Shown here: piece after piece, positions 1,525 to 55,210 of the stretch | How positions within the stretch are numbered: position 1 is the first letter of the stretch | Layout: each line of letters starts with the position of its first letter | From: Candidatus Doudnabacteria bacterium | Lineage (GTDB): Bacteria > Patescibacteriota > Doudnabacteria > UBA920 | Reading direction: 5' to 3' | Length of the DNA: 64,000 bases | Assembly: GCA_963768175.1 (NCBI GenBank) | Contig: CAVYGQ010000001.1 | Coordinates: 100,481-164,480 of the forward strand | Position numbers and translations under genes: made by a program | Notes under the pieces: generated by a model | Database searches by the model: none | Told to the model about the DNA's origin: nothing | The model's input: only the letters and a program-made list of their open reading frames with translations

Positions 1525-3408
1525 ATGCCTAAAATTTGGAAAGTAAAAACCAAAATTCCCGATGACATCGCGCAAAATTTATCGGAGTATCCGGAACTTT
1601 TGCGGCAGCTGTTTTTTAATCGTGGATTGACGGGAAAAGACCAAATTCAGGATTTTTTGGAGCCAAAATACGAAAATCTATACAGCCCGTTTTTGTTTAA
1701 AGATATGGAAAAGGCGGTGGAGCGGATTTGGCAGGCAATTGACCGGAGTGAAAAAATTTGTATTTATGGCGACTATGATGCCGACGCGATTACTGCCAAC
1801 GCGGTGCTGGCGCAGACGTTTAAATATTTAGGCGTTGAGATTTTATCGTACATCCCTGACAGGTTTACCGAAGGATACGGCATTAATATCGATGCTCTGT
1901 TAAAGATAAAGGATGAAGGATCAAAGATAATCATAACCGTTGATTGCGGCACTAATTCCGCTGACGCGGCAGAGTTTTGCAAAAAAAATAATATCGATCT
2001 AATTATTACCGACCATCATGAAATCATCGGAGAGGTTCCTGATGCTTACGCGCTGATAAATCCCAAAAATCCCGATGACAATTATCTATACCGCGATATT
2101 ACGGGAGTCGGGGTGGCATTTAAGCTGGCTTGCGGGATTTTATCAAAACGTGAAAAAATTATCGCGCGTTTTGAACCCTCACCCCTAGCCCCTCTCCCAA
2201 AGGGGGAGGGGAAGCCCGGAGTTGTGGGATGGGAAAAGTGGCTGCTTGATTTGGTGGCCATCGGCACGGTGGCGGATTGCCACAGCCTACTGGGGGAGAA
2301 TCGGATATTAGTAAAGTATGGTTTAAAAGTTTTGGCCAAGACGAAGTGGATTGGTTTACGCGCGTTGATGGAATCCGCGGGTTTGGCAGAGGTGTCCCCT
2401 CTGCAGCAGAGGGGACACCTCTGCCCGTTGAAGCCGCTTGATACCTATACCCTAGGCTTTATCATCGCGCCGAGATTAAACGCGGCGGGCAGGCTGGAGC
2501 ATGCCGGCATTGCTTTGGATCTATTGCTGGAAACCGATGCCAATCGCGCAAACGAAAAAGCCCGCAAACTGGAAGCCATAAATACGCGCCGGCAGGGGCT
2601 GACTGCGGAGGTGTTAAGCGAGGCCAAGGAAAAGGTCTTATTGCTTAAGGAAAGAAAAGTTTTGGCACTTGTAGGTGAAGGTTGGCCCAAAGGCGTAATG
2701 GGCCTGGTCGCCGGTAAATTGGCCGAGGAATTTTATAAGCCTACGATTGTGTTGGAAAAAACGGAGAATTTATGCACTGGTTCGGCCAGAACCGCCGGCA
2801 AGTTTGATATTTTGGAGGCTTTAAAGTTTTCTTCCGAGCATTTGTCCAAATTTGGCGGCCATAAACAGGCCGCTGGTTTGAGTTTAGAGGCCAATAAATT
2901 TGACCTTTTTTACCAGAAACTATTGGAATATGCCGAGGTAAAAATTGCGCCGGAATCGGCACAAAAAGCCCTTGAGCTGGAAGCAAAACTTGAGGGTCAT
3001 GACCTAATACCTAACACCTATAACCTAATATCTAAACTCCAGCCATTCGGCGTGGACAATCCCACTCCAAAATTTTTAGTTTCCAATCTTGAAGTTTCAT
3101 CAATCCGCATGGTCGGCAAGCAAACCCAGCATTTGCAGGTGAGATTTATATTGCCTTTTCGGCGTCATTCTGACCCTGAGCGGAGCGAAGGGGAAGAATC
3201 TCAATCAAAAGGAGAGATCCTTCGCTCCGCTCAGGATGACGCCGGGGTGAGTGGCAGGGAAATCGCCGGTATTATGTTTAATGCGCCGGATTTTGCCAAA
3301 ACTTTGAAAATCGGCGATACTGTAGATGTCGCGGCAGAGTTAATTGAGGACGGGTGGAACGGGAAGAGGGAAGTGAAGTTGCGCATCGTAGACCTAAAAA
3401 TTATCTAA
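1525..3408 (+). CDS. recJ: Single-stranded-DNA-specific exonuclease RecJ (DHH/DHHA1), with three in-frame palindromic insertions
   Basis: The DHH motifs (ICIYGDYDADAITA, IITDHH) and a DHHA1 region with an OB-fold C-terminus are present. Extra peptide segments are encoded by palindromes at 2189-2211, 2387-2423 and 3160-3247. Confidence 0.9.
   Translation: MPKIWKVKTKIPDDIAQNLSEYPELLRQLFFNRGLTGKDQIQDFLEPKYENLYSPFLFKDMEKAVERIWQAIDRSEKICIYGDYDADAITANAVLAQTFKYLGVEILSYIPDRFTEGYGINIDALLKIKDEGSKIIITVDCGTNSADAAEFCKKNNIDLIITDHHEIIGEVPDAYALINPKNPDDNYLYRDITGVGVAFKLACGILSKREKIIARFEPSPLAPLPKGEGKPGVVGWEKWLLDLVAIGTVADCHSLLGENRILVKYGLKVLAKTKWIGLRALMESAGLAEVSPLQQRGHLCPLKPLDTYTLGFIIAPRLNAAGRLEHAGIALDLLLETDANRANEKARKLEAINTRRQGLTAEVLSEAKEKVLLLKERKVLALVGEGWPKGVMGLVAGKLAEEFYKPTIVLEKTENLCTGSARTAGKFDILEALKFSSEHLSKFGGHKQAAGLSLEANKFDLFYQKLLEYAEVKIAPESAQKALELEAKLEGHDLIPNTYNLISKLQPFGVDNPTPKFLVSNLEVSSIRMVGKQTQHLQVRFILPFRRHSDPERSEGEESQSKGEILRSAQDDAGVSGREIAGIMFNAPDFAKTLKIGDTVDVAAELIEDGWNGKREVKLRIVDLKII
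3160..3247. repeat. Family-1 palindromic element inserted in-frame in recJ
   Basis: ggcgtcattctgaccctgagcggagcgaagg ... ccttcgctccgctcaggatgacgcc encodes FRRHSDPERSEGEESQSKGEILRSAQDDAG without interrupting the ORF. Confidence 0.8.
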
Positions 3409-3483
3409 ACATCTAAACATATAAACATTTAAGCATTCAGTAGTTGCTTATATGTTTGCATGTTTAAATGTTAATATGTTTAT

Positions 3484-5182: not shown

Positions 5183-5252
5183 GGTTACTATATTTTAGCG
5201 TAATTTTGCCGTTGTTACAATTGGTTAGGTTTGGTATAATAAGAGCTGTTTG

Positions 5253-5352
5253 TATAATCCGAATTATCCGAATACTGCAATCCAAATGACCCGAATGGGG
5301 GAACGGATAGATTTGGGGCATTCGGATATTAATTCGGGGTATTAGGATTATA
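5253..5352. repeat. ~100-bp inverted-repeat (MITE-like) element, copy A, immediately upstream of mreB
   Basis: tataatccgaattatccgaatactgcaatccaaatgacccgaat ... cattcggatattaattcggggtattaggattatat. The same arms occur at 11212-11658 and 13926-14022. Confidence 0.8.
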
Positions 5353-5357
5353 TTTCC

Positions 5358-6365
5358 ATGTTTGAAACGAAAATCGGCATAGATTTGGGCACGGCCAATA
5401 CTTTGGTTTACGTGCCCAAGCGGGGGATTATTATTAACGAGCCAACCGTGGTTGCCATTTCTTTGGAGGACAACCGTATTTTGGCAGTGGGGCAGGAAGC
5501 TAAGGAAATGCTCGGCCGCACTCCGGAGACGATTGTCGCCTCGCGCCCCATGAAAGACGGCGTAATTGCCGACTACCGCGTAACCGAAGCTATGCTCCGC
5601 TATTTTATCAATAAGGCTTTGGGCAACATCAGGTTTTTTAGGCCCGAGGTTATGATTTCCGTTCCGGGAGGGATTACTTCTACGGAAAGAAGGGCGGTTG
5701 TGGATGCGGCGCTCGCGGCCGGCGCCAAGGCGGCCTACGTGATAAAGGAAACCGTGGCCGCGGCTATTGGCGCGGGGATTCCCATAGCCGAAGCCAGGGG
5801 CAATTTGGTCATTGATGTCGGCGGCGGTACTACGGACGTGGCGGTATTATCTTTGGGCGGAATAGTTAATTCCACTTCCGTGCGCGTGGCCGGCAACCGG
5901 CTGGACCAGGCCATAGTGGATTTTGTCAGGAGAAAACACAGCTTGGCCATTGGTGACCGCACGGCCGAGGAAATTAAAATTACCATCGGCAGCGCCGTAA
6001 TTCTAAATGAAGAAGAACTTATGGAAGTTAAGGGCCGCGATATGATTTCCGGCTTGCCTAAAACCGTTACGGTTGCCTCTAACGAGGTGGTTCAGGCCAT
6101 TACCGAGGATCTTTTGGAAATTGCCAAGGCGGTAAAAACCGTGCTTCAGGATACCCCGCCGGAACTGGCTTCGGATATTATAGACAAAGGCATGGTTTTA
6201 ACGGGCGGAACGGCACTGTTGCGCAATATAGATCATTTTATTTCCCAGAGCGTGGGCGTTCCCTGTTTTGTGGCCGAAGATCCGCTTTTGTCCGTAGCCA
6301 AAGGTACGGGCGTGGCTTTGGATAACCTTGATAGTTATAAAAAGAGCATTTTAAGCGCGAAATAG
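5358..6365 (+). CDS. mreB: Rod shape-determining protein MreB (actin-like ATPase)
   Basis: The N-terminus IGIDLGTANTLVYV, the phosphate-binding motifs and the 335-aa length are typical of MreB. Confidence 0.95.
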   Translation: MFETKIGIDLGTANTLVYVPKRGIIINEPTVVAISLEDNRILAVGQEAKEMLGRTPETIVASRPMKDGVIADYRVTEAMLRYFINKALGNIRFFRPEVMISVPGGITSTERRAVVDAALAAGAKAAYVIKETVAAAIGAGIPIAEARGNLVIDVGGGTTDVAVLSLGGIVNSTSVRVAGNRLDQAIVDFVRRKHSLAIGDRTAEEIKITIGSAVILNEEELMEVKGRDMISGLPKTVTVASNEVVQAITEDLLEIAKAVKTVLQDTPPELASDIIDKGMVLTGGTALLRNIDHFISQSVGVPCFVAEDPLLSVAKGTGVALDNLDSYKKSILSAK

Positions 6366-6444
6366 GATTTTTTTGTAATTTGATTAAAATTTAAAATTAT
6401 CCTATAATAAAAACAAATCAATTTAAAATCCGAAACAAAAATAT

Positions 6445-6915
6445 ATGGCAAGGAAATCTTTGTATCTATTTTTGGCCGCTCTTTTAGGGACGCTTTTGTT
6501 TTTGATTGCCCATCAGGTAGTGTATTTTATTTACATTTACATGCTTAGCGCGGGGCTTGTAACCACCGGTATGAGCTATGTGGAATTTTTGGCCATTGAA
6601 TACTTTACCCTGACTATTACCCTTTTGCTCGGCGCGTGGTATGGTATTTGGCTGGGCCTTTATTGGTACGAAAAAGTTTATGAAGAAAAAAGCCATAAGG
6701 GTTTTGTGCACCATGTGGCGGTTAACTATTTTCCCGGCCCCAAACCTAAAGCTCCGGAAAGCCAAATGGCCCAAGTCAAGGAGCGTCTGGAGGAAAATTT
6801 GTGGCGACTGGAAGATTTGGCCAAAAGTGAAGCAAGTTTGCCGCCCATGGTTGAGCCGGAGCCAATTAAGTGTAGGGTTGTGCGTAAGCGCGCGCCAAAG
6901 AAGTTACAACAGTAG
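6445..6915 (+). CDS. Hypothetical membrane protein
   Basis: Several TM helices are followed by a charged C-terminus. No recognisable motifs were found. Confidence 0.4.
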   Translation: MARKSLYLFLAALLGTLLFLIAHQVVYFIYIYMLSAGLVTTGMSYVEFLAIEYFTLTITLLLGAWYGIWLGLYWYEKVYEEKSHKGFVHHVAVNYFPGPKPKAPESQMAQVKERLEENLWRLEDLAKSEASLPPMVEPEPIKCRVVRKRAPKKLQQ

Positions 6916-7089
6916 GCTTACGCGTTAGACAAATAATAGTGTTCGACCTTGTGGAGAACCTATTATTTGTCATAATTCCTTAAGCTTTTTTAGAAAAATA
7001 TCTTCTCCACAAGGTCGAAGGATATTTTTCTAACGATAGTTTCGTGAAATGCGTGAGTGCCGTTTAGTTTCAAATAATTTGATGTCTCC

Positions 7090-7470
7090 ATGACCCCCAA
7101 AAAATTCTTGTTGCTACTTTTTGTACAATGGCTGGTTTTGGCTTTGCTCAAAGCCTGGTTTTTTAACAGCCAAATTTTTTCCAATCCCGGCTTCCAGCAA
7201 ACTATTTATTGGATTTTAACGGCAGCAATTACAGCGGCTTTAATAAGGCGTTTTGAACATATAAACTTTTTGGAAGCATTTTTCGTGATTATCGCCTGGA
7301 CTTTGCTGGATTTGCTCTTAGATCTTATTGTGCTCAGTCCCTATACCGGCGTATCTATTTATTCCGCTCCGGAATATTGGTGGGGCATTGTTGTTATGGT
7401 TACATCTATTTTGCTTTTTCATAAAAAGCGCCATATTAAAGTCCGGCACGATTTGCGAGCGCATCATTAG
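7090..7470 (+). CDS. Hypothetical membrane protein
   Basis: The ORF encodes four predicted TM helices. Confidence 0.4.
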   Translation: MTPKKFLLLLFVQWLVLALLKAWFFNSQIFSNPGFQQTIYWILTAAITAALIRRFEHINFLEAFFVIIAWTLLDLLLDLIVLSPYTGVSIYSAPEYWWGIVVMVTSILLFHKKRHIKVRHDLRAHH

Positions 7471-7479
7471 AGTTGAAAG

Positions 7480-7857
7480 ATGAATATAAGAACGGCTCTT
7501 CCCAAAGATTTCGAAAGAATCAAGGTATTGATTGCCAGACATCCTAAACAGCTTATTCAGATTAACCTGCCAAAGCCGAAGGATTTTTTTGTGGCGGAAA
7601 AGGACGGTGAAATAATCGCCTGTTGCGCTTTGGAGGTATATTCCAAAAGAATGGCGGAGATTCGTAGCTTGGTGGTGGACCAGCGTTATTGGAGGCAGGG
7701 GATTGCCTCTAAGTTAATTAAGGAGTGTTTAAAAAAAGCTAAAAAATTTAAGGTTTACGAGGTACTTGGCGTGACCGGCTCGGTGTTGTTGTTTGAAAAC
7801 CAGGGCTTTAAAATGTTTAATAACGAGAAATACGCGCTGTTGAAAATCATGAAGTAG
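7480..7857 (+). CDS. GNAT family N-acetyltransferase
   Basis: An acetyl-CoA binding motif, VVDQRYWRQGIASKLI (Q/RxxGxG/A), is present. Confidence 0.7.
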   Translation: MNIRTALPKDFERIKVLIARHPKQLIQINLPKPKDFFVAEKDGEIIACCALEVYSKRMAEIRSLVVDQRYWRQGIASKLIKECLKKAKKFKVYEVLGVTGSVLLFENQGFKMFNNEKYALLKIMK

Positions 7858-8068
7858 GTGTGCGCGAACGAGAACCAGATATCTAACGACGGAGAATATC
7901 CGTTGTTTTTTGTTGTTCACACCCCAAAGCTTTAGCGAAGGGGTGTGAACAACTTTAGTTGCAAAAAGGTTCACCCAGCGCTAATTTACGCTGGTTTATT
8001 ATTGATGCTGGTTTAAAATTAAGCGATTGACTTTAAGACTGTTTATGAGTATATTTAAATTAGTGCTG

Positions 8069-8090
8069 GGTGAACGAGCGTATACTATAT
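8069..8090 (+). promoter_or_regulatory. Candidate LexA operator (SOS box) in the dinB promoter
   Basis: GGTGAACGAGCGTATACTATAT matches GGTGAACGTTCGTATATTGTAT upstream of lexA (35562-35585) at 20 of 22 positions. It overlaps a TATACT -10-like hexamer. Confidence 0.45.
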
Positions 8091-8245
8091 CAATATAAAC
8101 ACTAAATCCTAAAAACTAAAAACTAAACAAATTATAAATTCTAAAATATAAAGTACAAACTGCTCCGTTTAAGGTTTCTGTTTAAAAATTTATGATTTAT
8201 GGTTTGTTTAGAGTTTAGAAATTAGATTTTAGATTTTTTGAATTT

Positions 8246-9643
8246 ATGCAATCCGTCATTATGCATCTGGACATGAATAGCTATTTTGCCTCTGTAGAAC
8301 AGCAGGATAATTTAGCCTGGCGTGGAAAGCCTGTGGGGGTATGCGAACATTTGGGAGGCATTATTATTGCGGCTTCGGTAGAGGCTAAGCGTTGGGGCAT
8401 TAAAACCGGCACGCCCGTCTGGGAAGCCCGCAAGCTTTACCCCAAAATTATCATTAGCCCCACGCATCCGGACCGTTACCGTTTTTTTAACCGCTCTATG
8501 GTTAAGGTTGTGTCCGATTACACTTCCGCCGTGGAGGTTTACAGCATAGACGAGGTTTTTGCGGATTTGACCAAGGCTTGCAATGTCCGTCTCTGCCGGC
8601 GTCATTCCGAGCGAGTGCATCCGAGCGAGGAATCTCTTATTAGGCTAAGTGTAAGAGATCCCTTGTCCTCGGATGCACTCGGACTCAGGATGACGCCTGG
8701 GGAGAGCATGGCCGACCCTTTTGAAGAAGCTGTAAACATCGCTAAGGAAATCAAGCGGCGGTTTAAGGCCGAAGTGGGAGACTGGCTAAGGTGCAGCATC
8801 GGCATCGCCGAAAATAAATTGCTGGCCAAAATCGGTTCGGATTTTAAAAAACCCGATGGACTAGTGGTTATAACCGACAAGGGGCATCCTTGTGCAGCAC
8901 AAGGATGCCCCTTGTGGCTTTCTAAAGACGATATATACGATCGTCTGCGTCTTACCGACATCCCCGGTATTGGCCGGCGCCAAGAGAATAATTTAAACCA
9001 ACTTGGCATTAAGACGCTTAAAGAATTACGTGATTTTCCCAAAAGCCATTTAGTTGCCAGGTTCGGCAACATTATGGGCCATCATTTGTATAATATCGGG
9101 CAATTGCAGGGAACTTGGAAAGCTCCCGTCCATCAGGAACAAGAAATTAAGTCCATGGGCCATATGTATACTTTGCCGCAGGAGTTCCGCCGGCCGGAAT
9201 TTTTTATGCCCGTTCTCTATAAATTATGCGAGATGGTCGGCCGGCGCCTGCGCAGGAAGAGTTTAATGGGCAACCTTATTTACTTTTATTGTCACGATAA
9301 AGATTATCAGGGATTCGGCAAAAGCGTTAAGCTTGGATATTTTGTGCAGGACGGCAGGGAAATATTTTTGGTTGCCGCGGATATATACGCGGATCTGTTA
9401 CGCGGATCTAAACGCGGAGCGTTGGGGGTAAAGCTCATCGGCGTTACCGTGGCAGGCCTTCGGCCTTATGTCCATCAGCTTAGTTTGTTTGGTGATGTTG
9501 AGCGGCGGCTTAAGGCGACAAAGGCCCTGGACAAGATTAACGACAAATACGGGGAATTTACCATTTTGCGCGCGCAAATGCTGCCGGCCGGCAAAGCCTT
9601 TGCCGATTCCATAGGTTTTGGCAGGGTAAAGGAGCTTGGGTAG
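8246..9643 (+). CDS. dinB: DNA polymerase IV (Y-family, DinB) with two in-frame palindromic insertions
   Basis: The translation shows HLDMNSYFASVE, the finger/palm motifs and a little-finger domain. Insertions are encoded at 8594-8698 (family 1) and 8879-8915 (a perfect palindrome). Confidence 0.9.
   Translation: MQSVIMHLDMNSYFASVEQQDNLAWRGKPVGVCEHLGGIIIAASVEAKRWGIKTGTPVWEARKLYPKIIISPTHPDRYRFFNRSMVKVVSDYTSAVEVYSIDEVFADLTKACNVRLCRRHSERVHPSEESLIRLSVRDPLSSDALGLRMTPGESMADPFEEAVNIAKEIKRRFKAEVGDWLRCSIGIAENKLLAKIGSDFKKPDGLVVITDKGHPCAAQGCPLWLSKDDIYDRLRLTDIPGIGRRQENNLNQLGIKTLKELRDFPKSHLVARFGNIMGHHLYNIGQLQGTWKAPVHQEQEIKSMGHMYTLPQEFRRPEFFMPVLYKLCEMVGRRLRRKSLMGNLIYFYCHDKDYQGFGKSVKLGYFVQDGREIFLVAADIYADLLRGSKRGALGVKLIGVTVAGLRPYVHQLSLFGDVERRLKATKALDKINDKYGEFTILRAQMLPAGKAFADSIGFGRVKELG
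8594..8698. repeat. Family-1 palindromic element inserted in-frame in dinB
   Basis: ggcgtcattccgagcgagtgcatccgagcgagg ... cctcggatgcactcggactcaggatgacgcc encodes CRRHSERVHPSEESLIRLSVRDPLSSDALGLRMTPG. Confidence 0.8.
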
Positions 9644-9792
9644 AAAAGACAAGGACTGTCCTTTTGCAGGTAATGCCAAGTTTTAAGGACAGTCCTTGCG
9701 GAAAATATGGAAGTTCGCCGGGGCTGATTTTGACAAACACCAAAATAAATAATATACTAATTCAAGCATAGAATTAACTGAAATTTTAAAAT

Positions 9793-10593
9793 ATGGTTAA
9801 CTTAGATAATCCCATCCCATCTGATAACGAATCTCGGCCCGGCAAAAATTTAAATTATCCAGCCAAGATTATAGGCGCGTCAATAATAATCGGCGCGGTT
9901 ATGATTTCCGGCAGCTTATATTACGGTTTTAAAGAGCTGTATAAGCATTTGGATTACCTGATTCAGACGCCGGCTACCCAGGTTCAACCCGCCGCAGCCC
10001 CTTCTGCCACAGCGCCGTCGGTCGCAGCCCCAACCGCGGCTCCCACCACTGGCGCCGTTAACATTACTTTAAAACCCAATACTCCTTATTTGGGCGCCAG
10101 CAACGCCAATGTTACCGTGGTTGAATACGCGGACTATGAGTGTCCGTTTTGCGAGCAATTTTTTAAGAATGTTTTACCCGAGTTAAAAGCAAAATACATA
10201 GATACCGGCAAAATTAAGTTTTTCTACCAGGATTTCGCTTTTTTGGGCCCGGATTCCAACACCACAGCGGAAGCCTCCCATTGCGCCGAAGACCAAAATA
10301 AATTTTGGCAGTACCACGATTATCTTTTTAGCAACCAAGGGGCGGAAGGCAGCGGCTGGGCTACGTCAGATCACCAAAAACAATTTGCCGTGGCAATTGG
10401 TTTAAACACGGCGCAGTTTAACCAGTGCCTGGACAGCGGCAAATATAAGCAGGAAGTGCTGGATGAAACCTCCGCCGGCAAAAGTTACGGGGTCAGCGGT
10501 ACTCCCACGCTCTTTGTCAACGGTACGGCCATTGTAGGAGCTCAGCCTGCCACTGCCTTTGAAAAGGCCATTGACGCGGCGCTGAATAAATAA
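9793..10593 (+). CDS. DsbA-family thiol:disulfide oxidoreductase, membrane-anchored
   Basis: It has an N-terminal TM helix, an Ala/Pro-rich linker and a thioredoxin fold with a CPFC active site. Confidence 0.75.
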   Translation: MVNLDNPIPSDNESRPGKNLNYPAKIIGASIIIGAVMISGSLYYGFKELYKHLDYLIQTPATQVQPAAAPSATAPSVAAPTAAPTTGAVNITLKPNTPYLGASNANVTVVEYADYECPFCEQFFKNVLPELKAKYIDTGKIKFFYQDFAFLGPDSNTTAEASHCAEDQNKFWQYHDYLFSNQGAEGSGWATSDHQKQFAVAIGLNTAQFNQCLDSGKYKQEVLDETSAGKSYGVSGTPTLFVNGTAIVGAQPATAFEKAIDAALNK

Positions 10594-10945
10594 TTTTTTA
10601 CAGCACTTAAGCGGCGCATCTAATTGTGTCCTACCTTGTTAATAAAAGTATTAAAGATTATTACTTCAATCCCGACTGAACCGGAAGGACAGATATAAAC
10701 AACCAACCTAGAAAATGGCATTGCCGTTAAAAAATCATTGCGTCGCGCAATGGTTTTTCTAATAGCACGCCCGTTTGTCGGACATTCATATCCGTACGCG
10801 CAGTAACGGCAATAAATCGGGGCTAGGATTTTAAGCATTTGGCCCTTTGAGCTTTTTTATTTTTTATGTTATAATTTTATTAATAAATTAATATATATAA
10901 AAATCATTATTCCCGTGTAAGTCGGGAAAAAGGAGAAATAAAAAT

Positions 10946-11209
10946 ATGTCCGATCAGGAAGAGTATGGTAAAATGCTTACCGATTTAATCCAAAAGCAAA
11001 TGGTGGTGCTTGGTCCAAACATTGCTTTGGACAAAGCCCGTAAGGTTGCCGGATTAAAAGTCTCTGACGACGGGGTCGTTTTGGAGGTGACGGGGGATCC
11101 GAAACTGGTTTTAAAAGGCGTAGCCAACGAATATATGATGCTTTCCGGGCAGATTGTCCAAATGACCTTAAATTCGCTTTTGGAAAAATATCCGCAAATG
11201 AAAATGTAA
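10946..11209 (+). CDS. Hypothetical small protein
   Basis: It is preceded by an AGGAG-like RBS (aaaggagaaataaaaat atg). No motifs were recognised. Confidence 0.35.
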   Translation: MSDQEEYGKMLTDLIQKQMVVLGPNIALDKARKVAGLKVSDDGVVLEVTGDPKLVLKGVANEYMMLSGQIVQMTLNSLLEKYPQMKM

Positions 11210-11211
11210 AA

Positions 11212-11658
11212 TATAATCCGAATTATCCAAATACTGCAATCCAAATGACCCGAATTGTGGAAAAAGATTTATCCTACAAGATAACCGGTTTGTGTTTTAA
11301 AGTTCATAAAAAGTTAGGGAGATTTGCTAGTGAAAGACAGTATTGTGATGAATTTGAAAATTATCTAATAAAGGAAAATCTTCCATATGAAAGAGAGTTC
11401 GTAATCAAAAAGTTGTTACCTGATTCACCCGCAGGGAACAGGGTTGATTTTTTTGTTAAAGGGAAAGTTATTATAGACTTTAAAGCCAAACCTTTTATTA
11501 CCAAAGAAGATTATTTTCAGATGCAACGTTATTTGCAGGCAGCAAACCAGGAGTTGGGATTAATAATAAACTTTCGGGCTTATCGATTAACACCCAAGCG
11601 GATATTGAACAGCGGTTATTCGGGTCATTCGGATATTAATTCGGGTAATTAGGATTAT
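11212..11658. mobile_element. MITE-like inverted-repeat element, copy B, carrying a GxxExxY ORF between its arms
   Basis: The left arm at 11212-11256 and right arm at 11618-11658 are homologous to the arms of copies A and C. The ~360-bp interior is occupied by ORF 11245-11652. Confidence 0.6.
11245..11652 (+). CDS. GxxExxY family protein (PD-(D/E)XK-like fold)
   Basis: The GLCFKVHKKLG..E..Y..E.E... pattern is characteristic of the GxxExxY family, and the size (135 aa) fits. Confidence 0.65.
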   Translation: MTRIVEKDLSYKITGLCFKVHKKLGRFASERQYCDEFENYLIKENLPYEREFVIKKLLPDSPAGNRVDFFVKGKVIIDFKAKPFITKEDYFQMQRYLQAANQELGLIINFRAYRLTPKRILNSGYSGHSDINSGN

Positions 11659-13340
11659 TGTTTGAAACAAAAATGATTGTTAATATCCTCCTCATAATAG
11701 ATTTTCTAATGCTGGCGGTTGTTGTCAGCGCTTATATTTACGCCTCACTGCGCGAGCGCAAATATTTGCGCAAAGAAGCGGGGCAGTCACTGGAGCTGCA
11801 GCAAAAAGTTTATCAGGCCGAAGTTTTAAAAGAAATCAGTGAACGTATCGGTTACTCCTTGGACACCAATAAAATTGTGGATATTATTACCAGCTCGTTG
11901 GGCAACCTGCTGGATTACGACGCCGTCTCTTATATGGTTTTGGAAGAAGGCGGCAGGCCCGTGTTTAAATGCCACGTGCAAAATACCGTTAACCATCAAT
12001 TCATAGAAGACGTTAAGCAGAAAATGCTTATGTCCTACGAGGCCATTTTGGACAGCAAAATCCAAAGCAGCGATATGGATGAAAGCATTACCGGTAATAT
12101 TTTGGATGATAACCTAAAAGTTAAAGTGGAATCTTTTTTTAATTTGCCGGTGGTAATTTCCCAAAAATTAGTGGGGCTGATAAACGTGGCTTCCAAAGAG
12201 CGCGGCCGTTTTGGCGAAGAACAAGCGTCTATTTTATACGCCATTACCAACCAGGCGGCTACGGCTGTTTCCAAGCTCCAGGCAGTGCTGCAGAGCGAAA
12301 AAGGCAAACTGGAGGCGGTAATTTATTCTTTGGCCGACGGAGTCATAACTGTAGATTTAAACTACCATCTGGTTGTTTATAACCCGGTGATTAGGGATAT
12401 ACTGGGCATTGCCCAAGGCAAGCCCGTAACCATGTACGATATTGTCGATGGTTTGGCTGGTAAGGTTGATTTAAGGACTAAAATTGAGCAGGCCGTGGCC
12501 GAAGGCAAGGACATAACCTTGCCCGAAGTTATTTTAAGAGATAAAGCTTTGGAGTTGACCATTGCGCCGGTTAAAGACAGCCAGGGGGAGATTATCGCGG
12601 CCAGCGTCGTTTTTCATGACATTACCACGGAAAAGACTTTGGAAAAAACCAGGCAGGAATTTACGGCTATGATGGTGCATGAGCTGCGTGCTCCGCTAAC
12701 GGCTGTCCGTTGGTCTTCGGAATCCATGATCAAAAATTTAAGCCTGGCCTCCGGAGTTGGCCAGGCCAAAATTAAAGACACCATGCTGACCATTGAAACT
12801 GCTTCTAACAACATGCTGGAGCTGGTCAACGACCTTTTGGATGTGGCCAAAATTGAATCCGGAAAGTTTGAACTGAATCTTCAAGAGTATGATTTGGTAG
12901 AGGTTATTAACGATCAGGCCAAAGTTTTCAGGCCACAGGCGGAAATAAAGCATTTGGCGATTAATGTTATTACCCCGCCAAAGTATATGTTAAAATTTGA
13001 CCGCGTCAGGGTTGGCCAGGTGCTGGGCAATCTAATGAGCAACGCCATTAAGTATACCGACAGCGGGCAAATTGATATTAACCTTAACATCAATGCCGAA
13101 GAAAAAATGGCCACGGTTTCCATAAAAGATACCGGCATCGGCGTATCCCGTGAAGACCTGGCGGACCTGTTCAGCAAATTTAAACAGCTAAAAACCGGCG
13201 ACCGGAGCCGCAAAGGCACGGGCCTTGGGCTGGTGGTGAGCAAGGGGATTGTGGAAGCGCACGGTGGGAAAATTTGGGCCGAGTTTGCCGGGGAAAATTT
13301 GGGATCAACCTTTTCTTTTTCTTTGCCTTTGGATAAGTAG
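11658..13340 (+). CDS. Sensor histidine kinase (TM, GAF/PAS-like, HisKA, HATPase_c)
   Basis: The H-box MMVHELRAPLTAV is present, with N, G1 and G2 boxes (GNLMSNAIKYT, DTGIGV, GTGLGL). Confidence 0.85.
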   Translation: MFETKMIVNILLIIDFLMLAVVVSAYIYASLRERKYLRKEAGQSLELQQKVYQAEVLKEISERIGYSLDTNKIVDIITSSLGNLLDYDAVSYMVLEEGGRPVFKCHVQNTVNHQFIEDVKQKMLMSYEAILDSKIQSSDMDESITGNILDDNLKVKVESFFNLPVVISQKLVGLINVASKERGRFGEEQASILYAITNQAATAVSKLQAVLQSEKGKLEAVIYSLADGVITVDLNYHLVVYNPVIRDILGIAQGKPVTMYDIVDGLAGKVDLRTKIEQAVAEGKDITLPEVILRDKALELTIAPVKDSQGEIIAASVVFHDITTEKTLEKTRQEFTAMMVHELRAPLTAVRWSSESMIKNLSLASGVGQAKIKDTMLTIETASNNMLELVNDLLDVAKIESGKFELNLQEYDLVEVINDQAKVFRPQAEIKHLAINVITPPKYMLKFDRVRVGQVLGNLMSNAIKYTDSGQIDINLNINAEEKMATVSIKDTGIGVSREDLADLFSKFKQLKTGDRSRKGTGLGLVVSKGIVEAHGGKIWAEFAGENLGSTFSFSLPLDK

Positions 13341-13541
13341 GTATCGTCATTGCGAGGAGTTAGACGACGAAGCAATCTTTTTTTGGAAAGGTAAAGATTG
13401 CCGCGCAATTTAGGACAAAGCCCCTAAATTGCTCGCAATGACAGGAACGATATTGCCGTTATCGGTTTTCTAAATATTGTGGTATAATAAGGTATCAATA
13501 AATCCCTTCAAATAAGGGTTTAAAATTATTAAATAAAAACT

Positions 13542-13925
13542 ATGACAAAAATTTTATTGGCAGAAGACGACAAGCTTATTTCCAATTCGCTTTGCGATGC
13601 TCTTAAAACCGCAGGATTTGAGCCTGCTGTGGCTTATGACGGCGAAGAGGCTGTGGCTAAGGTCAAGGAAGCCTTGCCTGATTTAATACTTTTGGATATT
13701 ATGATGCCTAAACTAGACGGTATTTCCGTGCTTTGGGAGCTTAAAGCCAATCCTGCCACGGCTAAAATCCCAGTGGTAGTGCTTACCAACATCGGCGATG
13801 TGGAAACTATCAGTAAAATTGTGGAAGCCGGAGCTGTGGATTACTTGCTTAAGTCGGACCAGTCGGTAGATGATATTATCCAAAAAGTAAAAGACGTTTT
13901 AGCAAGGAACGTAAAATTAGCGTAA
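13542..13925 (+). CDS. Response regulator, receiver domain only (CheY-like)
   Basis: The translation has EDD, a phospho-acceptor Asp in LILLDIMMP and the conserved T and K residues. There is no output domain. Confidence 0.85.
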   Translation: MTKILLAEDDKLISNSLCDALKTAGFEPAVAYDGEEAVAKVKEALPDLILLDIMMPKLDGISVLWELKANPATAKIPVVVLTNIGDVETISKIVEAGAVDYLLKSDQSVDDIIQKVKDVLARNVKLA

Positions 13926-14022
13926 ATATAATCCGAATTATCCAAATGGGAACAATCCAAATGCTCCGAAAAGTAGAGCATTTGGGGCATTCGGATATTG
14001 ATTCGGGGAATTAGGATTATAT
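13926..14022. repeat. MITE-like inverted-repeat element, copy C
   Basis: tataatccgaattatccaaatgggaacaatccaaatgctccgaaaagtagagcatttggggcattcggatattgattcggggaattaggattatat. Confidence 0.8.
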
Positions 14023-21085: not shown

Positions 21086-21706
21086 TTATGCGAACTGTTG
21101 CAACTGTCCTAAAATGGCCTGTTCCAGCTGAACAGTATCATAATGGCGTTGAGGCTTGATGTGTAAAATATTTAACTCTGAGGCTCTCAAAGCCCCGTCT
21201 AAAAAATCATCTCTTAATTTTCTATTGAAATAATTATGGGTATAATCATCCAGTTCAATAACCAAAAGTGGCGACAAATAAACTTTGTCAAAGATTACAA
21301 AATCTACTGTCTTTTTGTTTATCCTGTTAAAGTTGCTGTAAGTGGAATTTGTGCCGTATCTTTCCAGTCCGCCTTGGACTTCAATGATTCGGGATAAGGC
21401 AACCTGTGGCATAATAAAATACCTGTCCTTGATTATTTCCTGTAGCACTCCGAAAAACTTGTATTCGGTTTGGGTCATCAGGTATCGCTTTTTTCTGAAT
21501 GGATAAATTTTATCGTCTTTTTTTACTTCCTGAATTTTTGTATTGCCAGCATTACTAGGCGGTAAAGGTATCTCGGAATAATTTTGCTTTGAGCTTTTTA
21601 TGATGTAACTGGCAAGAATGATTATGATTATTAAACCAAATAAAAAATCCATAAATTTGCTTTTAGAAACACAAAGCCCCGGTCCAGCCGGGCTTTTACA
21701 CCCCAT
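21086..21706 (-). CDS. DUF2726-domain protein (NERD/restriction-endonuclease-like fold), membrane-anchored
   Basis: An N-terminal TM helix precedes the DUF2726 signature (TVDFVIFDKVYLSPLLVIELDDYTH ... RDDFLDGAL...LNILHIK). Confidence 0.55.
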   Translation of the reverse strand: MGCKSPAGPGLCVSKSKFMDFLFGLIIIIILASYIIKSSKQNYSEIPLPPSNAGNTKIQEVKKDDKIYPFRKKRYLMTQTEYKFFGVLQEIIKDRYFIMPQVALSRIIEVQGGLERYGTNSTYSNFNRINKKTVDFVIFDKVYLSPLLVIELDDYTHNYFNRKLRDDFLDGALRASELNILHIKPQRHYDTVQLEQAILGQLQQFA

Positions 21707-22000
21707 ACCCCTTTCGGGATATGACCATAAGACAGTAGCTGAACGCGGGGTTCAGTATGTCTTATGGTTTTACAGCCGTGCCTGATTAAAGGTTTAGGCC
21801 ATTCAGTTGTGATTAAATTATACCAAACTTGACAACAATTTTAAAGGGGTGTATGGTGGAGTTAGTTCATTAAAAAGTTAATAATTAAACGTAAGTTTTA
21901 TTTCTCCTCCCTCGGAGTAAGACAGGGGCTATGCCGTTTTGAACACAAAAACGGTGTGGCGTTTTGACCGCTTGTCTCAGCCATTAGAGGCCTTACAAAA

Positions 22001-29225: not shown

Positions 29226-29476
29226 TATCAGCAATTAAACCCCCACACCAATTTGATATAAATTTGTTAAGGGTTTAGCAAAATCCTCCAACCATTTCAA
29301 AATGAATTGGTGTGGGGGTAAACCAAAGACAGTTGGCCTCCGACTGAAACGTCGGAGTTAATTATCATCGCAAGATGATTGCCCACCGAGGAAGTGTAGC
29401 GCGCCCATTCATGGGCTGCAGCCGATAAATCGGCGCGCTACATCACACTCGGGTAAGCCCGAGTATTTTTGTTCGG
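29226..29476 (+). ncRNA. Candidate structured sRNA (promoter, five consecutive hairpins, intrinsic terminator); class unknown
   Basis: A TGGTATAAT -10 at 29217-29225 is followed by stems aaacccccacaccaatt/aattggtgtgggggtaaacc, ctccgac/gtcggag, atcatc-gcaa-gatgat and gtagcgcgcc/ggcgcgctac. The final stem cactcgggtaagcccgagtg is followed by atttttg. Confidence 0.3.
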
Positions 29477-29542
29477 CGTCATCCTGAACGAAGTGAAGGA
29501 TCTCATTAAAGAGATTCCTCGCTGCGCTCGGAATGACGCCGG
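29472..29542. repeat. Family-1 palindromic element in the rplJ leader region
   Basis: ttcggcgtcatcctgaacgaagtgaaggatctc ... gagattcctcgctgcgctcggaatgacgccgg. Confidence 0.8.
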
Positions 29543-37304: not shown

Positions 37305-37379
37305 TTGGTAGCGCTACAGGGAATCGGACCCTGATTTGTTGGCTGAGAACCAACCGTCCTAACCATTAGACGATAGCGC
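37305..37379 (-). tRNA. tRNA-Glu (anticodon CUC)
   Basis: The minus strand reads GGCGCUAUCGUCUAAUGGUUAGGACGGUUGGUUCUCAGCCAACAAAUCAGGGUCCGAUUCCCUGUAGCGCUACCA. It folds as a cloverleaf with anticodon loop UUCUCAG and an encoded CCA. Confidence 0.85.
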
Positions 37380-37619
37380 CATAATTGTATCAAATAATTC
37401 TTGCCTAGCTTTATAATAATGTTTAAGGTGGTATTCTCTTTTTCGTGCTTCCGTTAAGGTAGGGCATTCTTCAGTATAGACAATTTTAAAAGGTCTGTAT
37501 GGTTTGGTTGATTTGACCTTACCGTTGTTATGGTATCGCAATCTTTGTTCTTTATCTTCTGTACATCCGATGTACTTCCAATTTTGCTTTAAGCTTTGTA
37601 ATACATATATCCAAGCCAT
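37359..37619 (-). CDS. GIY-YIG nuclease superfamily protein (small, stand-alone)
   Basis: WIYVLQS...WKYIGCTEDKEQRLRYHNNG...FKIVYTEE..T.TEARKREYHLKH matches GIY-YIG motifs. The last 7 codons overlap the 5' 21 nt of tRNA-Glu. Confidence 0.7.
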   Translation of the reverse strand: MAWIYVLQSLKQNWKYIGCTEDKEQRLRYHNNGKVKSTKPYRPFKIVYTEECPTLTEARKREYHLKHYYKARQELFDTIMALSSNG

Positions 37620-39149: not shown

Positions 39150-39151
39150 TT

Positions 39152-39240
39152 TTTCTACTAAATACTAAAGTAACTAAATACGAAAGTGAGCAAAAGAAGG
39201 TTTAGTATTTCGCCCCCTTCGTATTTAGTAGAAAAAAAGA
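39152..39240. terminator. Long hairpin (bidirectional terminator-like) after the GH1 gene
   Basis: tttctactaaatac ... gtatttagtagaaaaaaa is an extended stem with flanking T/A runs. Confidence 0.4.
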
Positions 39241-43917: not shown

Positions 43918-43929
43918 CAGGCAGACAAA

Positions 43930-43969
43930 CCAGTGGGAAAGTTGTACAAATGTACAACTTTCCCACTGG
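43930..43969. terminator. Perfect 40-bp palindrome (ccagtgggaaagttgtacaaatgtacaactttcccactgg) between the ybaK-like gene and scpA
   Basis: A 17-bp perfect stem sits between tandem minus-strand genes. Confidence 0.5.
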
Positions 43970-43973
43970 CGGA

Positions 43974-53376: not shown

Positions 53377-53381
53377 GGTCT

Positions 53382-53440
53382 CCTAATTCCTAATTCCTAA
53401 TTCCTAATTCCTAATTCCTAATTCCTAATTCCTAATTCCT
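53382..53440 (+). repeat. Heptanucleotide microsatellite (CCTAATT)x8 plus a partial unit, ending 5 nt before the rmlA start codon
   Basis: It is a perfect tandem repeat in the rmlD-rmlA intergenic spacer and replaces any recognisable RBS. Confidence 0.9.
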
Positions 53441-53444
53441 TTTC

Positions 53445-54179
53445 ATGAAAGGCATTATTCTCTCCGGCGGCAGCGGCACGCGCCTGCATCCTTTAACCAA
53501 AGTTACCAGTAAACAGCTTTTGCCGGTTTACAATAAACCGATGATTTTGTATCCGCTGGAAACCCTGCTTAAGGCCGGCATCAAAGACATTTTGATAATT
53601 ATCGCGCCGGACCACCCGGGTGACTATATGAAACTGTTGGGCTCAGGCCGCGAGTTTGGCGCCCGTTTTTCTTACGAAATTCAAGATAAGCCGGAAGGCC
53701 TGGCCCAGGCTTTTATTATTGCCGAAGATTATATTGGAAGCGATAACGTTTGCATGATTTTAGGCGACAATATTTTTGAAGACGATTTTTCCAAAACTAT
53801 CAAAAATTTCAAAAAAGGCGGGCACGTTTTTGCCAAAAAGGTGACCGATCCCCAGCGGTTCGGCGTTGTTAAATTCAACGAAAATATGGACGCGGTTAAA
53901 ATTGAAGAAAAGCCCAAGGAGTTTTTGTCCGATTACGCAATTACCGGGCTTTATCTTTACGACAATCGCGTAGTACAAGCGGCAAAATCGGTTAGGCCAT
54001 CGGCGCGGGGCGAATTGGAAATTACGGAATTGCACAACTGGTATTTAAAAAGGAATGAACTGAAAGTAGACATAGTCAAAGGGCAGTGGATAGACGCCGG
54101 CACTTTTGAATCGCTGCACCGCGCCGGCGAGCTTATGCGCCGGAAGGCATTAAATAAACCGACACCAATCCACGAATGA
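53445..54179 (+). CDS. rmlA: Glucose-1-phosphate thymidylyltransferase
   Basis: The motif MKGIILSGGSGTRLHPLT is present, with a short (244 aa) nucleotidyltransferase fold. Confidence 0.9.
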   Translation: MKGIILSGGSGTRLHPLTKVTSKQLLPVYNKPMILYPLETLLKAGIKDILIIIAPDHPGDYMKLLGSGREFGARFSYEIQDKPEGLAQAFIIAEDYIGSDNVCMILGDNIFEDDFSKTIKNFKKGGHVFAKKVTDPQRFGVVKFNENMDAVKIEEKPKEFLSDYAITGLYLYDNRVVQAAKSVRPSARGELEITELHNWYLKRNELKVDIVKGQWIDAGTFESLHRAGELMRRKALNKPTPIHE

Positions 54180-54226
54180 GACACGAATGACGCGAATCCA
54201 AACCTAAATCCGTATTCGTATCATTC

Positions 54227-55210
54227 GTGTGCGATCCGTATATTAGTGTCGCTATTATGACCAATAAAACCCAGAAAATTATCGCCGTCTCCCTTATTGC
54301 CATTGTGGTTTTTGGCGGTTTTGAGGCGCTGATTTATATTTTAAACCTTAATCAGCCGGTAATATATTTGCAGACGGCTCTGTGGATTTTTTTGTATCTG
54401 CTTTTTAATATTGTATTTTTCTTTGACCTGCATTTTAAAACTCCGGGCAGTTGGCAGAGAGCCAAAACCAAGCATCAAAATTTGGCTAAGGGGTTGGGAC
54501 GTTTTATAAAAACCGTTTTTTCCGCGTTCTGGGACCGCTTTGAGCATTTGCGGGAGCTGGAGTATTTAAAGCGATGGATTTATTTTTTACTGTTGCCCGG
54601 GTTTATTTTTTGGGCGTCGGTTTCTTTGTTTTACTCAAACTTCGGTTTCTATAAAAACCAGCAAATTATTGCCTTGTTTTCCGGTGTCGCTTTGGTGGTC
54701 TATTATTCCTATATAAAAGAAATTTTTAACCGCAAAAAAGAAGTTGTTGATAGCGATATTTTTATTGTTTTGTCGGTGATAAAAATTTATACGGCTGGCG
54801 TGCTGTTCGCGGCCAGCATGGCCATGCTAAGGAGCTATTGCCTGCAGCCTTTATATTTTAGCGCTGAGGTTTTTTGCTATACTTTTTTGCTGATTTATCA
54901 GGCGCTTTACCAGCACCGCAAAGCTAACGGTGCCACAACAGCCCAGGCTTTAATTATTTCTCTGGTCATGGCCGTTATTGGCCAGCTGGTTTATGTTTAT
55001 TGGGGATTTAATTATTTCACCGCGGCTGTGTTTTTAACCGCCTGCTATAATTTTTTCTGGGGCGTTTTCCATTACCACTTGGACAGAGCCTTGACCTGGC
55101 GGGCTTTTTTGGAAATCCTGATCATTAGCCTGATAATGGGAGGCATGGTAATTTCCGTGACCAACTTTAACGCCCGGCTTTTGGATAGCTGCCAGTATAG
55201 GGTGTTTTAA
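54227..55210 (+). CDS. Hypothetical polytopic membrane protein downstream of the rml cluster
   Basis: It has ~9 TM helices. A glycan-processing role is possible, but no motif was seen. Confidence 0.35.
   Translation: MCDPYISVAIMTNKTQKIIAVSLIAIVVFGGFEALIYILNLNQPVIYLQTALWIFLYLLFNIVFFFDLHFKTPGSWQRAKTKHQNLAKGLGRFIKTVFSAFWDRFEHLRELEYLKRWIYFLLLPGFIFWASVSLFYSNFGFYKNQQIIALFSGVALVVYYSYIKEIFNRKKEVVDSDIFIVLSVIKIYTAGVLFAASMAMLRSYCLQPLYFSAEVFCYTFLLIYQALYQHRKANGATTAQALIISLVMAVIGQLVYVYWGFNYFTAAVFLTACYNFFWGVFHYHLDRALTWRAFLEILIISLIMGGMVISVTNFNARLLDSCQYRVF

Follow-up and report, generated by a model that had tools for sequence, protein, structure and literature searches.

The question raised by this locus is whether three similar inverted repeats, one of which encloses a gene of the GxxExxY family, are copies of a mobile element, and whether the enclosed gene takes part in its movement. 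The locus lies in a stretch of 64,000 nucleotides from a Candidatus Doudnabacteria bacterium (assembly GCA_963768175.1, contig CAVYGQ010000001.1, positions 100,481 to 164,480), which is called the window below. According to the reading preferred here, which is given a probability of about 0.5, the three copies (A, B and C) are mobile stem-loop cassettes of Patescibacteria (the candidate phyla radiation, CPR) that resemble intervening sequences (IVSs), reside in mRNA junctions and would use GxxExxY as a homing-like enzyme.

Three element copies in the window

The features in question, all on the + strand, are the following.

5212-5240, +: promoter-like site TTGTTA-17-(TG)TATAAT 5' of copy A, conserved in relative L114
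5253-5352, +: copy A, short, without an open reading frame (ORF); 21-mer and 20-mer arm matches, profile score 92 bits
11212-11658, +: copy B as a whole, with an intact GxxExxY gene between its arms
11212-11262, +: left arm of copy B; profile part 11213-11262, 42 bits
11245-11652, +: GxxExxY gene, 135 aa, with profile matches to the family and its TAG stop within the right arm
11610-11658, +: right arm of copy B; profile score 33 bits
13927-14021, +: copy C, short, ORF-less; arm matches, profile score 78 bits

Exact matches of the left-arm 21-mer TATAATCCGAATTATCCRAAT are located at 5253, 11212 and 13927, and matches of the right-arm 20-mer at 5319, 11626 and 13988, with 0 expected from shuffles in both cases. 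A profile hidden Markov model (HMM) of the element, trained on 21 copies from other genomes and run on the 64-kb window, recovers copies A, B (as two halves) and C and nothing more, which confirms the three copies with shared arms described in an earlier note on this DNA. The profile score equals 92 bits on the sense strand vs 40 bits on the antisense strand, i.e., more than twice as high, and thus the near-palindromic element is asymmetric and has a definite orientation. The arms of copy B are 94% and 86% identical to copies A and C, respectively. Copy B and most of copy C, to the contig end, are reproduced at 99.97% by an independent assembly (Logan ERR10755942).

The arms consist of serial 8-10-nt units (ATCCGAAT, TATCCGAAT, AATCCAAAT and GACCCGAAT), with the complementary series in the opposite arm; in copy A, for example, four units on the left (..CCGAAT/..CCAAAT) are followed by a 14-nt loop and by the complementary units on the right. 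The bases flanking the element ends vary, both the one that precedes ATAATCC and the final ones past GGATT. Being 95-100 bp long and non-coding, with terminal inverted repeats and in multiple copies (3 in 64 kb), copies A and C have the form of miniature inverted-repeat transposable elements (MITEs).

As for placement, the earlier note had put every copy exactly between a stop codon and the next start, which does not apply to copy A, while for copies B and C it needs the coordinates given here. The left arm of copy B begins 2 nt past the TAA of an 87-aa gene, and the copy ends at 11658, with the probable ATG of a histidine kinase at 11673. Copy C starts 1 nt past the TAA of a response regulator and ends 3 nt before the ATG of a PCC-domain gene (14025). 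Copy A, however, belongs to the 5' untranslated region (UTR) of mreB (ATG at 5358) in a divergent intergenic region. The promoter-like site at 5212-5240 also precedes a different hairpin upstream of mreB in L114, and this conservation of the promoter 5' of both mreB hairpins places the hairpin inside the transcript.

Two further ideas about the short copies were rejected. The TATAAT and AGGA of the element do not serve in general as a promoter/Shine-Dalgarno cassette: in the case of copy A the conserved promoter is found 5' of the element, in copies B and C a -35 partner is lacking, hairpins of the ACGAAT family are devoid of AGGA, and the AGGA-to-ATG spacing is 10 nt in copy A and 8 nt in copy C, but 18 nt in copy B. 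Mini-ORFs running from ATG to TAG in the GxxExxY frame are present in copy A (5284-5343, MTRMGERIDLGHSDINSGY and stop) and in copy C (13961-14014, from the arm ATG, MLRKVEHLGHSDIDSGN and stop). A conserved mini-ORF (MTR...GHSDINSG and stop) was nevertheless discarded, as the frame is kept in about 4-5 of 19 copies elsewhere, which is the chance rate.

The interior of copy B was correctly described as a complete GxxExxY ORF that starts within the left arm. Its product reaches 70 bits against TIGR04256 (cut-off 35) and 73.6 bits against PF13366 (PDDEXK_3, cut-off 22), and contains the N-terminal G..E..Y motif together with the PD-(D/E)XK residues D68, D78-x-K80 and Q92xxxY96. By fold it is a RecB/Cas4-like PD-(D/E)XK nuclease; the nearest folds are Cas4, Dna2 and restriction enzymes, not transposases, and a search of PDB by sequence gives no match at E <= 1. 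The ATG (11245) is located within the last left-arm unit (ccaaATGACCCGAAT), and the right arm is translated into the final ~15 residues (SGYSGHSDINSGN); the match to the family extends to about residue 120, and the model shows disorder for residues 129-135. Among 205 close homologues, many are likewise 135 aa long, and C-terminal tails of homologues (e.g., SGHSD.NSGN) are translated arm units as well. The protein is under strong purifying selection, with ratios of nonsynonymous to synonymous divergence (dN/dS) of 0.04, 0.04 and 0.14 in three pairs. GxxExxY/PF13366 as a whole comprises 6,775 clusters at 50% identity (E <= 0.001) among 1.8 billion representatives. Many of the best representatives have 270-900 aa with the domain at one end; these long calls are probably read-through or fusion products, because the ORF enters the right arm, which abuts the next gene.

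Gene, arms and sites in related genomes

The arm 20-mer was scanned against one genome per species (596 Gb), which yielded about 20 true short copies in metagenome-assembled genomes (MAGs) of Patescibacteria. Each of them lies 1-3 nt past a stop codon and ends 0-10 nt before the next ATG; all are co-oriented with the downstream gene, and an ORF is found in none. The sampled parts of MAG AMAZON01 contain at least 9 short copies that are 85-97% identical to one another, and in ~75 kb of four relatives the element family of the window is absent. Homologues of the histidine kinase next to copy B with 72-94% identity are named Doudnabacteria or Patescibacteria. A wide taxonomic spread of the 20-mer was rejected: matches in Clostridia, Bizionia, Desulfonema, Burkholderiales and Saliniplasma come without the rest of the element and therefore look like chance in 596 Gb. 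The "Saccharibacteria" label of two MAGs is also doubtful, as the kinase of CAZHIA01 is 72% identical to the Doudnabacteria-like kinase of the window.

Regarding the gene, 80 metagenomic loci were fetched via GxxExxY protein alignment, 68 of which are non-redundant; the comparison set in total includes ~120 related loci, to which the L numbers refer. Inverted arms bracket the gene above all 100 shuffles in 57 of the 68 loci and above the 95th percentile in 62, in agreement with the suggestion of the earlier note that gene and arms form one unit. The bracketing arms have 3-5 tandem 8-10-nt units on the left (NNCGAAT and similar) and their complement on the right, and the outermost part is often AGCGAYNC...GNRTCGCT or TATAATCC...GGATTATA. 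Unit types around GxxExxY genes are CCGAAT, ACGAAT, GCGAAT, CTAAT and CGGAT, and the arms are a superfamily whose unit sequence varies from locus to locus, not one family. Arm unit type follows ORF relatedness: nearest ORF neighbours share it in 33 of 68 cases (13.4 +/- 3.8 in shuffles). Left and right unit clusters are separated by either 0-100 nt or 350-450 nt, a bimodal distribution, and ORF-less hairpins are far commoner among loci that were not selected for a GxxExxY gene. The next gene downstream points the same way in 45 of 52 loci, and the gene upstream does so in 51 of 60. MAG AMAZON01 carries a second GxxExxY gene, a pseudogene with arms of CGCTGAT/ATCAGCG units. Beyond the CPR, plasmid homologues have 28-nt arms of tandem CACAGAG units in Bernardetia and 16-nt arms in Treponema.

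A small GC palindrome, CCGCCAGCTGGCGG (CCGCCATAGGGCGG in L006), is nested in otherwise normal element arms, namely in the left arm in L004 and L021 (3901-4006) and in the right arm in L006, and also in L059 and L075, which suggests a further layer of insertion into hairpins. Arrays of 15-30 units called by a regex detector in L102 and L104 were not confirmed when the sequence was read at the plus-strand coordinates.

Comparison of relatives reveals both filled and empty sites. In L120 the genes of a protease and ruvX overlap by ATGA and there is no hairpin, whereas syntenic L121 has a complete cassette with TATAATCC-type arms exactly at the protease/ruvX junction, its last bases providing the AT of the ruvX start codon. 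The cassette of L120 is found one junction downstream, where its TATAA provides the ruvX stop codon. The GxxExxY genes of L120 and L121 are among the closest homologues (73% and 66%, respectively), and neither is at the site occupied in the window. L032 and L033 have a 475-nt cassette in common (88.6% identity) between unrelated flanks. L078 (3345-3825, filled) and L092 (~1660-1760, empty) share the arm family, an orthologous junction and syntenic flanks, and the ORF of L078 fills exactly the loop of the hairpin seen empty in L092. Finally, L034 has a complete GxxExxY cassette at the junction orthologous to window 43918-43973, which contains a GC hairpin only.

At the site of copy B (site B, sites A and C being named in the same way), the GxxExxY gene is absent in 5 of 5 relatives examined, each having an empty hairpin instead. 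Among these hairpins, that of L119 (kinase 94% identical) is made of CGCTGAA units, those of L112 and L113 are made of GCGAA units and those of L114 and L115 of ACGAAT units, so that four unit families occupy site B across the window, L119, L112/L113 and L114/L115. Sites A and C show family swaps among relatives as well. Since a hairpin of some kind, often from a different family, is present at orthologous sites in almost all cases, polymorphism usually takes the form of family replacement or of filled vs empty rather than of simple presence or absence of a MITE. True insertion into a hairpin-free junction, however, also occurs (L121).

Filled and empty sites were thus both found where the earlier note had proposed to look for them (L078/L092, L121/L120, L034/window, 5/5 gene-less relatives at site B). 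Insertion polymorphism between related genomes is seen in L121 vs L120, in L034 vs the window and in the family swaps at sites A-C. The idea of an autonomous and non-autonomous (MITE) pair survives in part: structure and the existence of filled and empty forms of one arm family (L078/L092, window) speak for it, but there is no sign of a target-site duplication, the arms belong to more than one family, and family swaps are the usual polymorphism.

Other hairpins, IVS-protein cassettes and known systems

The 64-kb window contains about 10 further hairpins of the same build with other unit sequences, all at gene junctions. Hairpins and palindromes of the window include:

3409-3483, +: hairpin of AAACAT/ATGTTT units between recJ and the RNase H gene; family kept at the orthologous site of L114
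15766-15901, +: hairpin built of AATCCGAA/TTCGGATT-type units that runs up to the next ATG; z -9
39150-39240, +: hairpin of CTAAATA/TATTTAG units; unit type also present at site C in relative L115
43918-43973, -: perfect 18-bp GC-rich hairpin only, at the junction upstream of a ScpA-like gene
54173-54246, +: hairpin of the ACGAAT-unit family spanning a stop-to-start junction; outermost GACAC...GTGTCGC

The outermost GACAC...GTGTCGC of the last hairpin recurs in many GxxExxY cassettes. The kinase/response-regulator junction (13341-13541) holds another long palindrome, GTCATTGCGAGGAG...CTCGCAATGAC, followed by promoter-like TGGTATAAT; in relatives L113 and L115 the junction contains a hairpin of TACTAAT units. 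At 53381-53444, nine tandem TCCTAAT units without a complementary arm directly precede the gene at 53445, and the same unit makes a full hairpin upstream of mreB in L114. The recJ gene (1525-3408) contains in-frame palindromic inserts at 2160-2225, 2390-2435 and 3150-3245 (e.g., ...FRRHSDPERSEGEESQSKGEILRSAQDDAG...). The 32-nt sequence CGGCGTCATCCTGAGCGGAGCGAAGGATCTCT at 1430-1461 is present in inverted form at 3213-3244 (100% complementary) and again at 29474-29504 (90%). The recJ-type inserts represent a second small palindromic family, which tolerates insertion within coding sequence.

Other features of the window are a LOOT RNA (RF03000) at 21690-21800 (-), with 70 bits against a gathering score of 46.4, in a 577-nt intergenic region, and a GIY-YIG nuclease ORF (PF01541, 57 bits) at 37359-37619 (-), which overlaps the end of a tRNA (37309-37380, -) in a 1-kb region with no other genes. 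An ORF of 1472 aa at 58920-63338 has internal repeats, including diverged 230-nt repeats and a 300-nt segment repeated at 99% identity (59881-60180 and 60667-60966).

Hairpins with a different gene in the loop also exist. In L112 (3488-4067) the hairpin at the kinase/response-regulator junction has CCAAGA/TCTTGG units and a frameshifted PF05635 (23S rRNA IVS protein) gene in its loop. The fetched loci contain seven further PF05635 genes, each flanked by unit-array arms whose units are A/T-rich (TCAAAAT, TTTTCAAT, GTGATTA) and never CGAAT. Loop genes of this kind within gene-junction hairpins are found at

L048 3653-3976 and 5596-5919, L035 7693-8016, L039 1539-1856
L053 3643-3978, L042 2102-2377

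and one such cassette is present twice in L048. The PF05635 protein is a four-helix bundle, not a nuclease, and is unrelated to GxxExxY. With IVS-protein genes in analogous hairpins, the elements look like rRNA IVSs living in mRNA junctions.

Bacterial 23S rRNA IVSs (Coxiella, Leptospira, Salmonella) are ~100-750-nt insertions with a terminal complementary stem and a loop that holds a small ORF of unknown function or none; they are excised by RNase III, lie in sense in the transcript, are sporadically distributed and are regarded as selfish (PMC4990558). The elements described here share with them a stem of terminal complements closing an optional ORF, the sense orientation in the transcript and the sporadic distribution, and relatives of the window carry the IVS ORF family PF05635 in hairpins of the same build. 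They differ in location, which is mRNA junctions and 5' UTRs instead of helices 25 or 45 of rRNA (there is no rRNA in the window, and all element copies lie between protein-coding genes), in arms made of tandem 8-10-nt unit arrays and in an ORF that encodes a PD-(D/E)XK nuclease. Homing endonuclease genes, free-standing or intron-borne, are known, including in CPR rRNA insertions (PMC11270868). As with these, a small nuclease gene is situated in mid-sequence, the uninterrupted form exists at the same locus (L078 vs L092), the flanks (here the arms) could serve as repair homology, and there is no target duplication. The target, however, would be a repeated hairpin rather than a conserved gene, and GxxExxY is not an established homing family, its role in cleavage being putative.

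Two other comparisons concern short palindromes, and the elements resemble both in part, being short, multi-copy, palindromic and intergenic. Correia (NEMIS) elements of Neisseria are multi-copy intergenic palindromes of ~100-150 bp that fold into hairpins, are co-transcribed, vary between strains, have ends resembling TATA(A/G)T and duplicate a TA target; they are not known to have a full-length coding partner. The elements of the window have similar ends, are presumably co-transcribed and vary between genomes as well, but they show no target duplication, lie strictly in sense and include a coding form with the same arms. Repetitive extragenic palindromic (REP) sequences and bacterial interspersed mosaic elements (BIMEs) are short palindromes present in many copies at gene 3' ends or between cistrons; REPs are single imperfect palindromes of ~35 nt, and the single-copy, repeat-flanked gene for RAYT, an HUH/Y1 enzyme, is their proposed mobiliser. 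A single-copy gene flanked by the same repeats as many short palindromes is common to both cases. Here, however, the flanked gene has a RecB/Cas4-like PD-(D/E)XK fold, and the arms are unit arrays that close a loop with an ORF.

Proposed mobile cassettes, rival explanations and meaning

In the reading preferred here, the full-length cassette has a ~125-aa GxxExxY nuclease gene in the loop, with start and stop codons in the innermost arm units, and the common short form has lost the gene or never gained it. Cassettes occupy transcribed stop-to-start junctions or 5' UTRs in sense orientation, where the closed stem may make the insertion harmless to the flanking genes at the RNA level and might for this reason be conserved. 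GxxExxY would recognise the repeated arm units or the arm-arm junction, and by cutting there it could cause the gene alone, or the entire cassette, to be copied into further junctions or empty hairpins in a homing-like manner that leaves no target duplication. Of this picture, the data show directly the anatomy, the linkage of ORF and arms, the polymorphisms of sites and of filled and empty forms, the purifying selection and the nuclease fold. We infer the role of GxxExxY as the mobility enzyme from its nuclease fold, the co-variation of arm units with ORF clade and family, the conservation of the arms and the filled and empty alleles.

According to sequence conservation, the elements are not decaying junk, as the arms are more conserved than synonymous sites. 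In L032/L033 the left arms are 100% and the right arms 93% identical at a synonymous divergence (dS) of 0.92; in relatives saturated at synonymous sites (dS >= 1.05), same-family empty hairpins at orthologous sites are 73-80% identical, and the recJ/RNase H hairpin keeps its family between the window and L114 (dS above 1). The stems of the elements matter, and so, probably, do their sequences; we read this constraint as intron-like or IVS-like, in that a cassette placed between coupled genes has to retain its fold. The short copies fold over their entire length with -30 to -32 kcal/mol and z -2.9 to -5.7 (copy A: -31.9 kcal/mol, z -2.9). In the predicted minimum free energy and centroid structures of copy B (11205-11680), the arms pair across ~350 nt, the ORF lies in the closed loop, and the ATG is buried. 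Covariation within the family is limited to one clearly compensatory pair (A-U in 12 copies vs G-C in 7), since the sequences are too similar. A known RNA family was rejected as an explanation: Rfam has no match to the hairpins at gathering thresholds and none at E <= 1 over copy A.

Several results weigh against a mobile cassette driven by GxxExxY. Neither a target-site duplication nor a defined cut site was found at L032/L033, the two L048 copies or L120/L121. A G-U strand asymmetry, which would have pointed to selection on the RNA, is absent in 21 copies, the sense strand being more stable in 12 and the antisense strand in 9. Outside the CPR, one of three GxxExxY genes, that of Persicobacter, has no bracketing inverted repeat, and the frequencies given above are biased, since the loci were picked by ORF or arm 20-mer. 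In the literature, GxxExxY is not a known transposase or homing enzyme; the searchable part holds neither a functional study of GxxExxY nor a description of these cassettes. The cassettes with a non-nuclease IVS protein imply that a nuclease is needed neither for the architecture nor for its duplication, and an unrelated ORF family in analogous loops means that the GxxExxY ORF, instead of being the transposase of the arms, may be a passenger that homes into loops. Persistence of hairpins at orthologous sites over saturated dS also fits a host function.

The last two points lead to an alternative that regards the hairpins as cis-elements of CPR operons with a benefit to the host, e.g., RNase III or RNA-stability sites, attenuators or terminators, means of translational coupling or arrays of binding sites for a host protein. 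They would be kept at fixed junctions, and the GxxExxY and IVS-protein genes would be selfish loop-homing passengers with no part in making or moving them. This agrees with the presence of some hairpin at sites A and B in every relative examined and at C in most, with the retained recJ/RNase H family and the 73-80% identity of empty hairpins across such divergences, with the strictly sense, flush stop-to-start placement, the conserved promoter upstream of the mreB hairpin, the two unrelated ORF families in the same kind of loop and the ~10 hairpins of different families in 64 kb. It is hard to reconcile, however, with unit sequences that change wholesale at one site between genomes whose kinase is 91-94% identical, which would be odd for a site-specific regulator, with near-identical copies beside unrelated genes in one genome, or with a cassette inserted where a relative has overlapping genes and no hairpin. 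The co-variation of arm type with ORF clade and family argues against entry of ORFs into arbitrary pre-existing hairpins, and the hairpins have neither a consistent U-tract nor an Rfam match. On balance this alternative seems rather unlikely.

Still less probable is that GxxExxY is a cellular or a defence/toxin nuclease of the Cas4/RecB type without a role in mobility. The arms would then control its translation or RNA stability by sequestering start and stop codons, and would spread or be lost by host recombination or through an unrelated transposase acting in trans on palindromes, as RAYT on REP. The low dN/dS (0.04), the long vertical persistence at syntenic positions (L067/L075/L106, L079/L109), the ATG buried in a predicted long-range stem, the nearest folds (Cas4, Dna2, restriction enzymes) and one paper with a GxxExxY-domain call where another tool calls cas4 are all consistent with such a nuclease. 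Short ORF-less copies of the same arm family, which have no gene to regulate, however, far outnumber the copies with the ORF; pseudogenised copies are tolerated (L030); gene and arms change locus together between close syntenic relatives (L120/L121); and no gene for a transposase was spotted in the neighbourhood of the cassettes, which were not searched systematically for one. As for similarity of the three copies through chance, low complexity or an assembly artefact, the AT-rich, repetitive arms are the only point in its favour, while shuffles predict 0 matches, the Logan assembly reproduces copy B and most of C, and ~20 more copies in other MAGs have the same placement, which makes it extremely improbable.

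Beyond the mobile cassettes favoured here, a wider and tentative interpretation, possible but on the doubtful side, is that GxxExxY and the IVS proteins are cargo or engines of one new class of mobile elements, namely stem-loop cassettes with unit-array arms that serve protein recognition. Insertion would take place at stop/start junctions of transcribed genes without target duplication and do no damage because the element folds out of the mRNA; the IVSs of rRNA would be the special case of an insertion into rRNA, and GxxExxY would be a new kind of nuclease for homing or transposition whose recognition targets are repeated half-sites or hairpin DNA.

GxxExxY/PF13366 is a large family without an assigned function, and its location in the loop of a hairpin leads to a concrete biochemical hypothesis, based on co-evolving arms, filled and empty alleles and moves between junctions, which predicts arm units and the empty junction as substrates. 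It also links GxxExxY to the equally enigmatic IVS-protein family and bears on the 35-year-old question of the origin and spread of rRNA intervening sequences. In CPR genomes, the cassettes account for much intergenic sequence and produce spurious C-terminal tails and read-through fusion calls in annotation.

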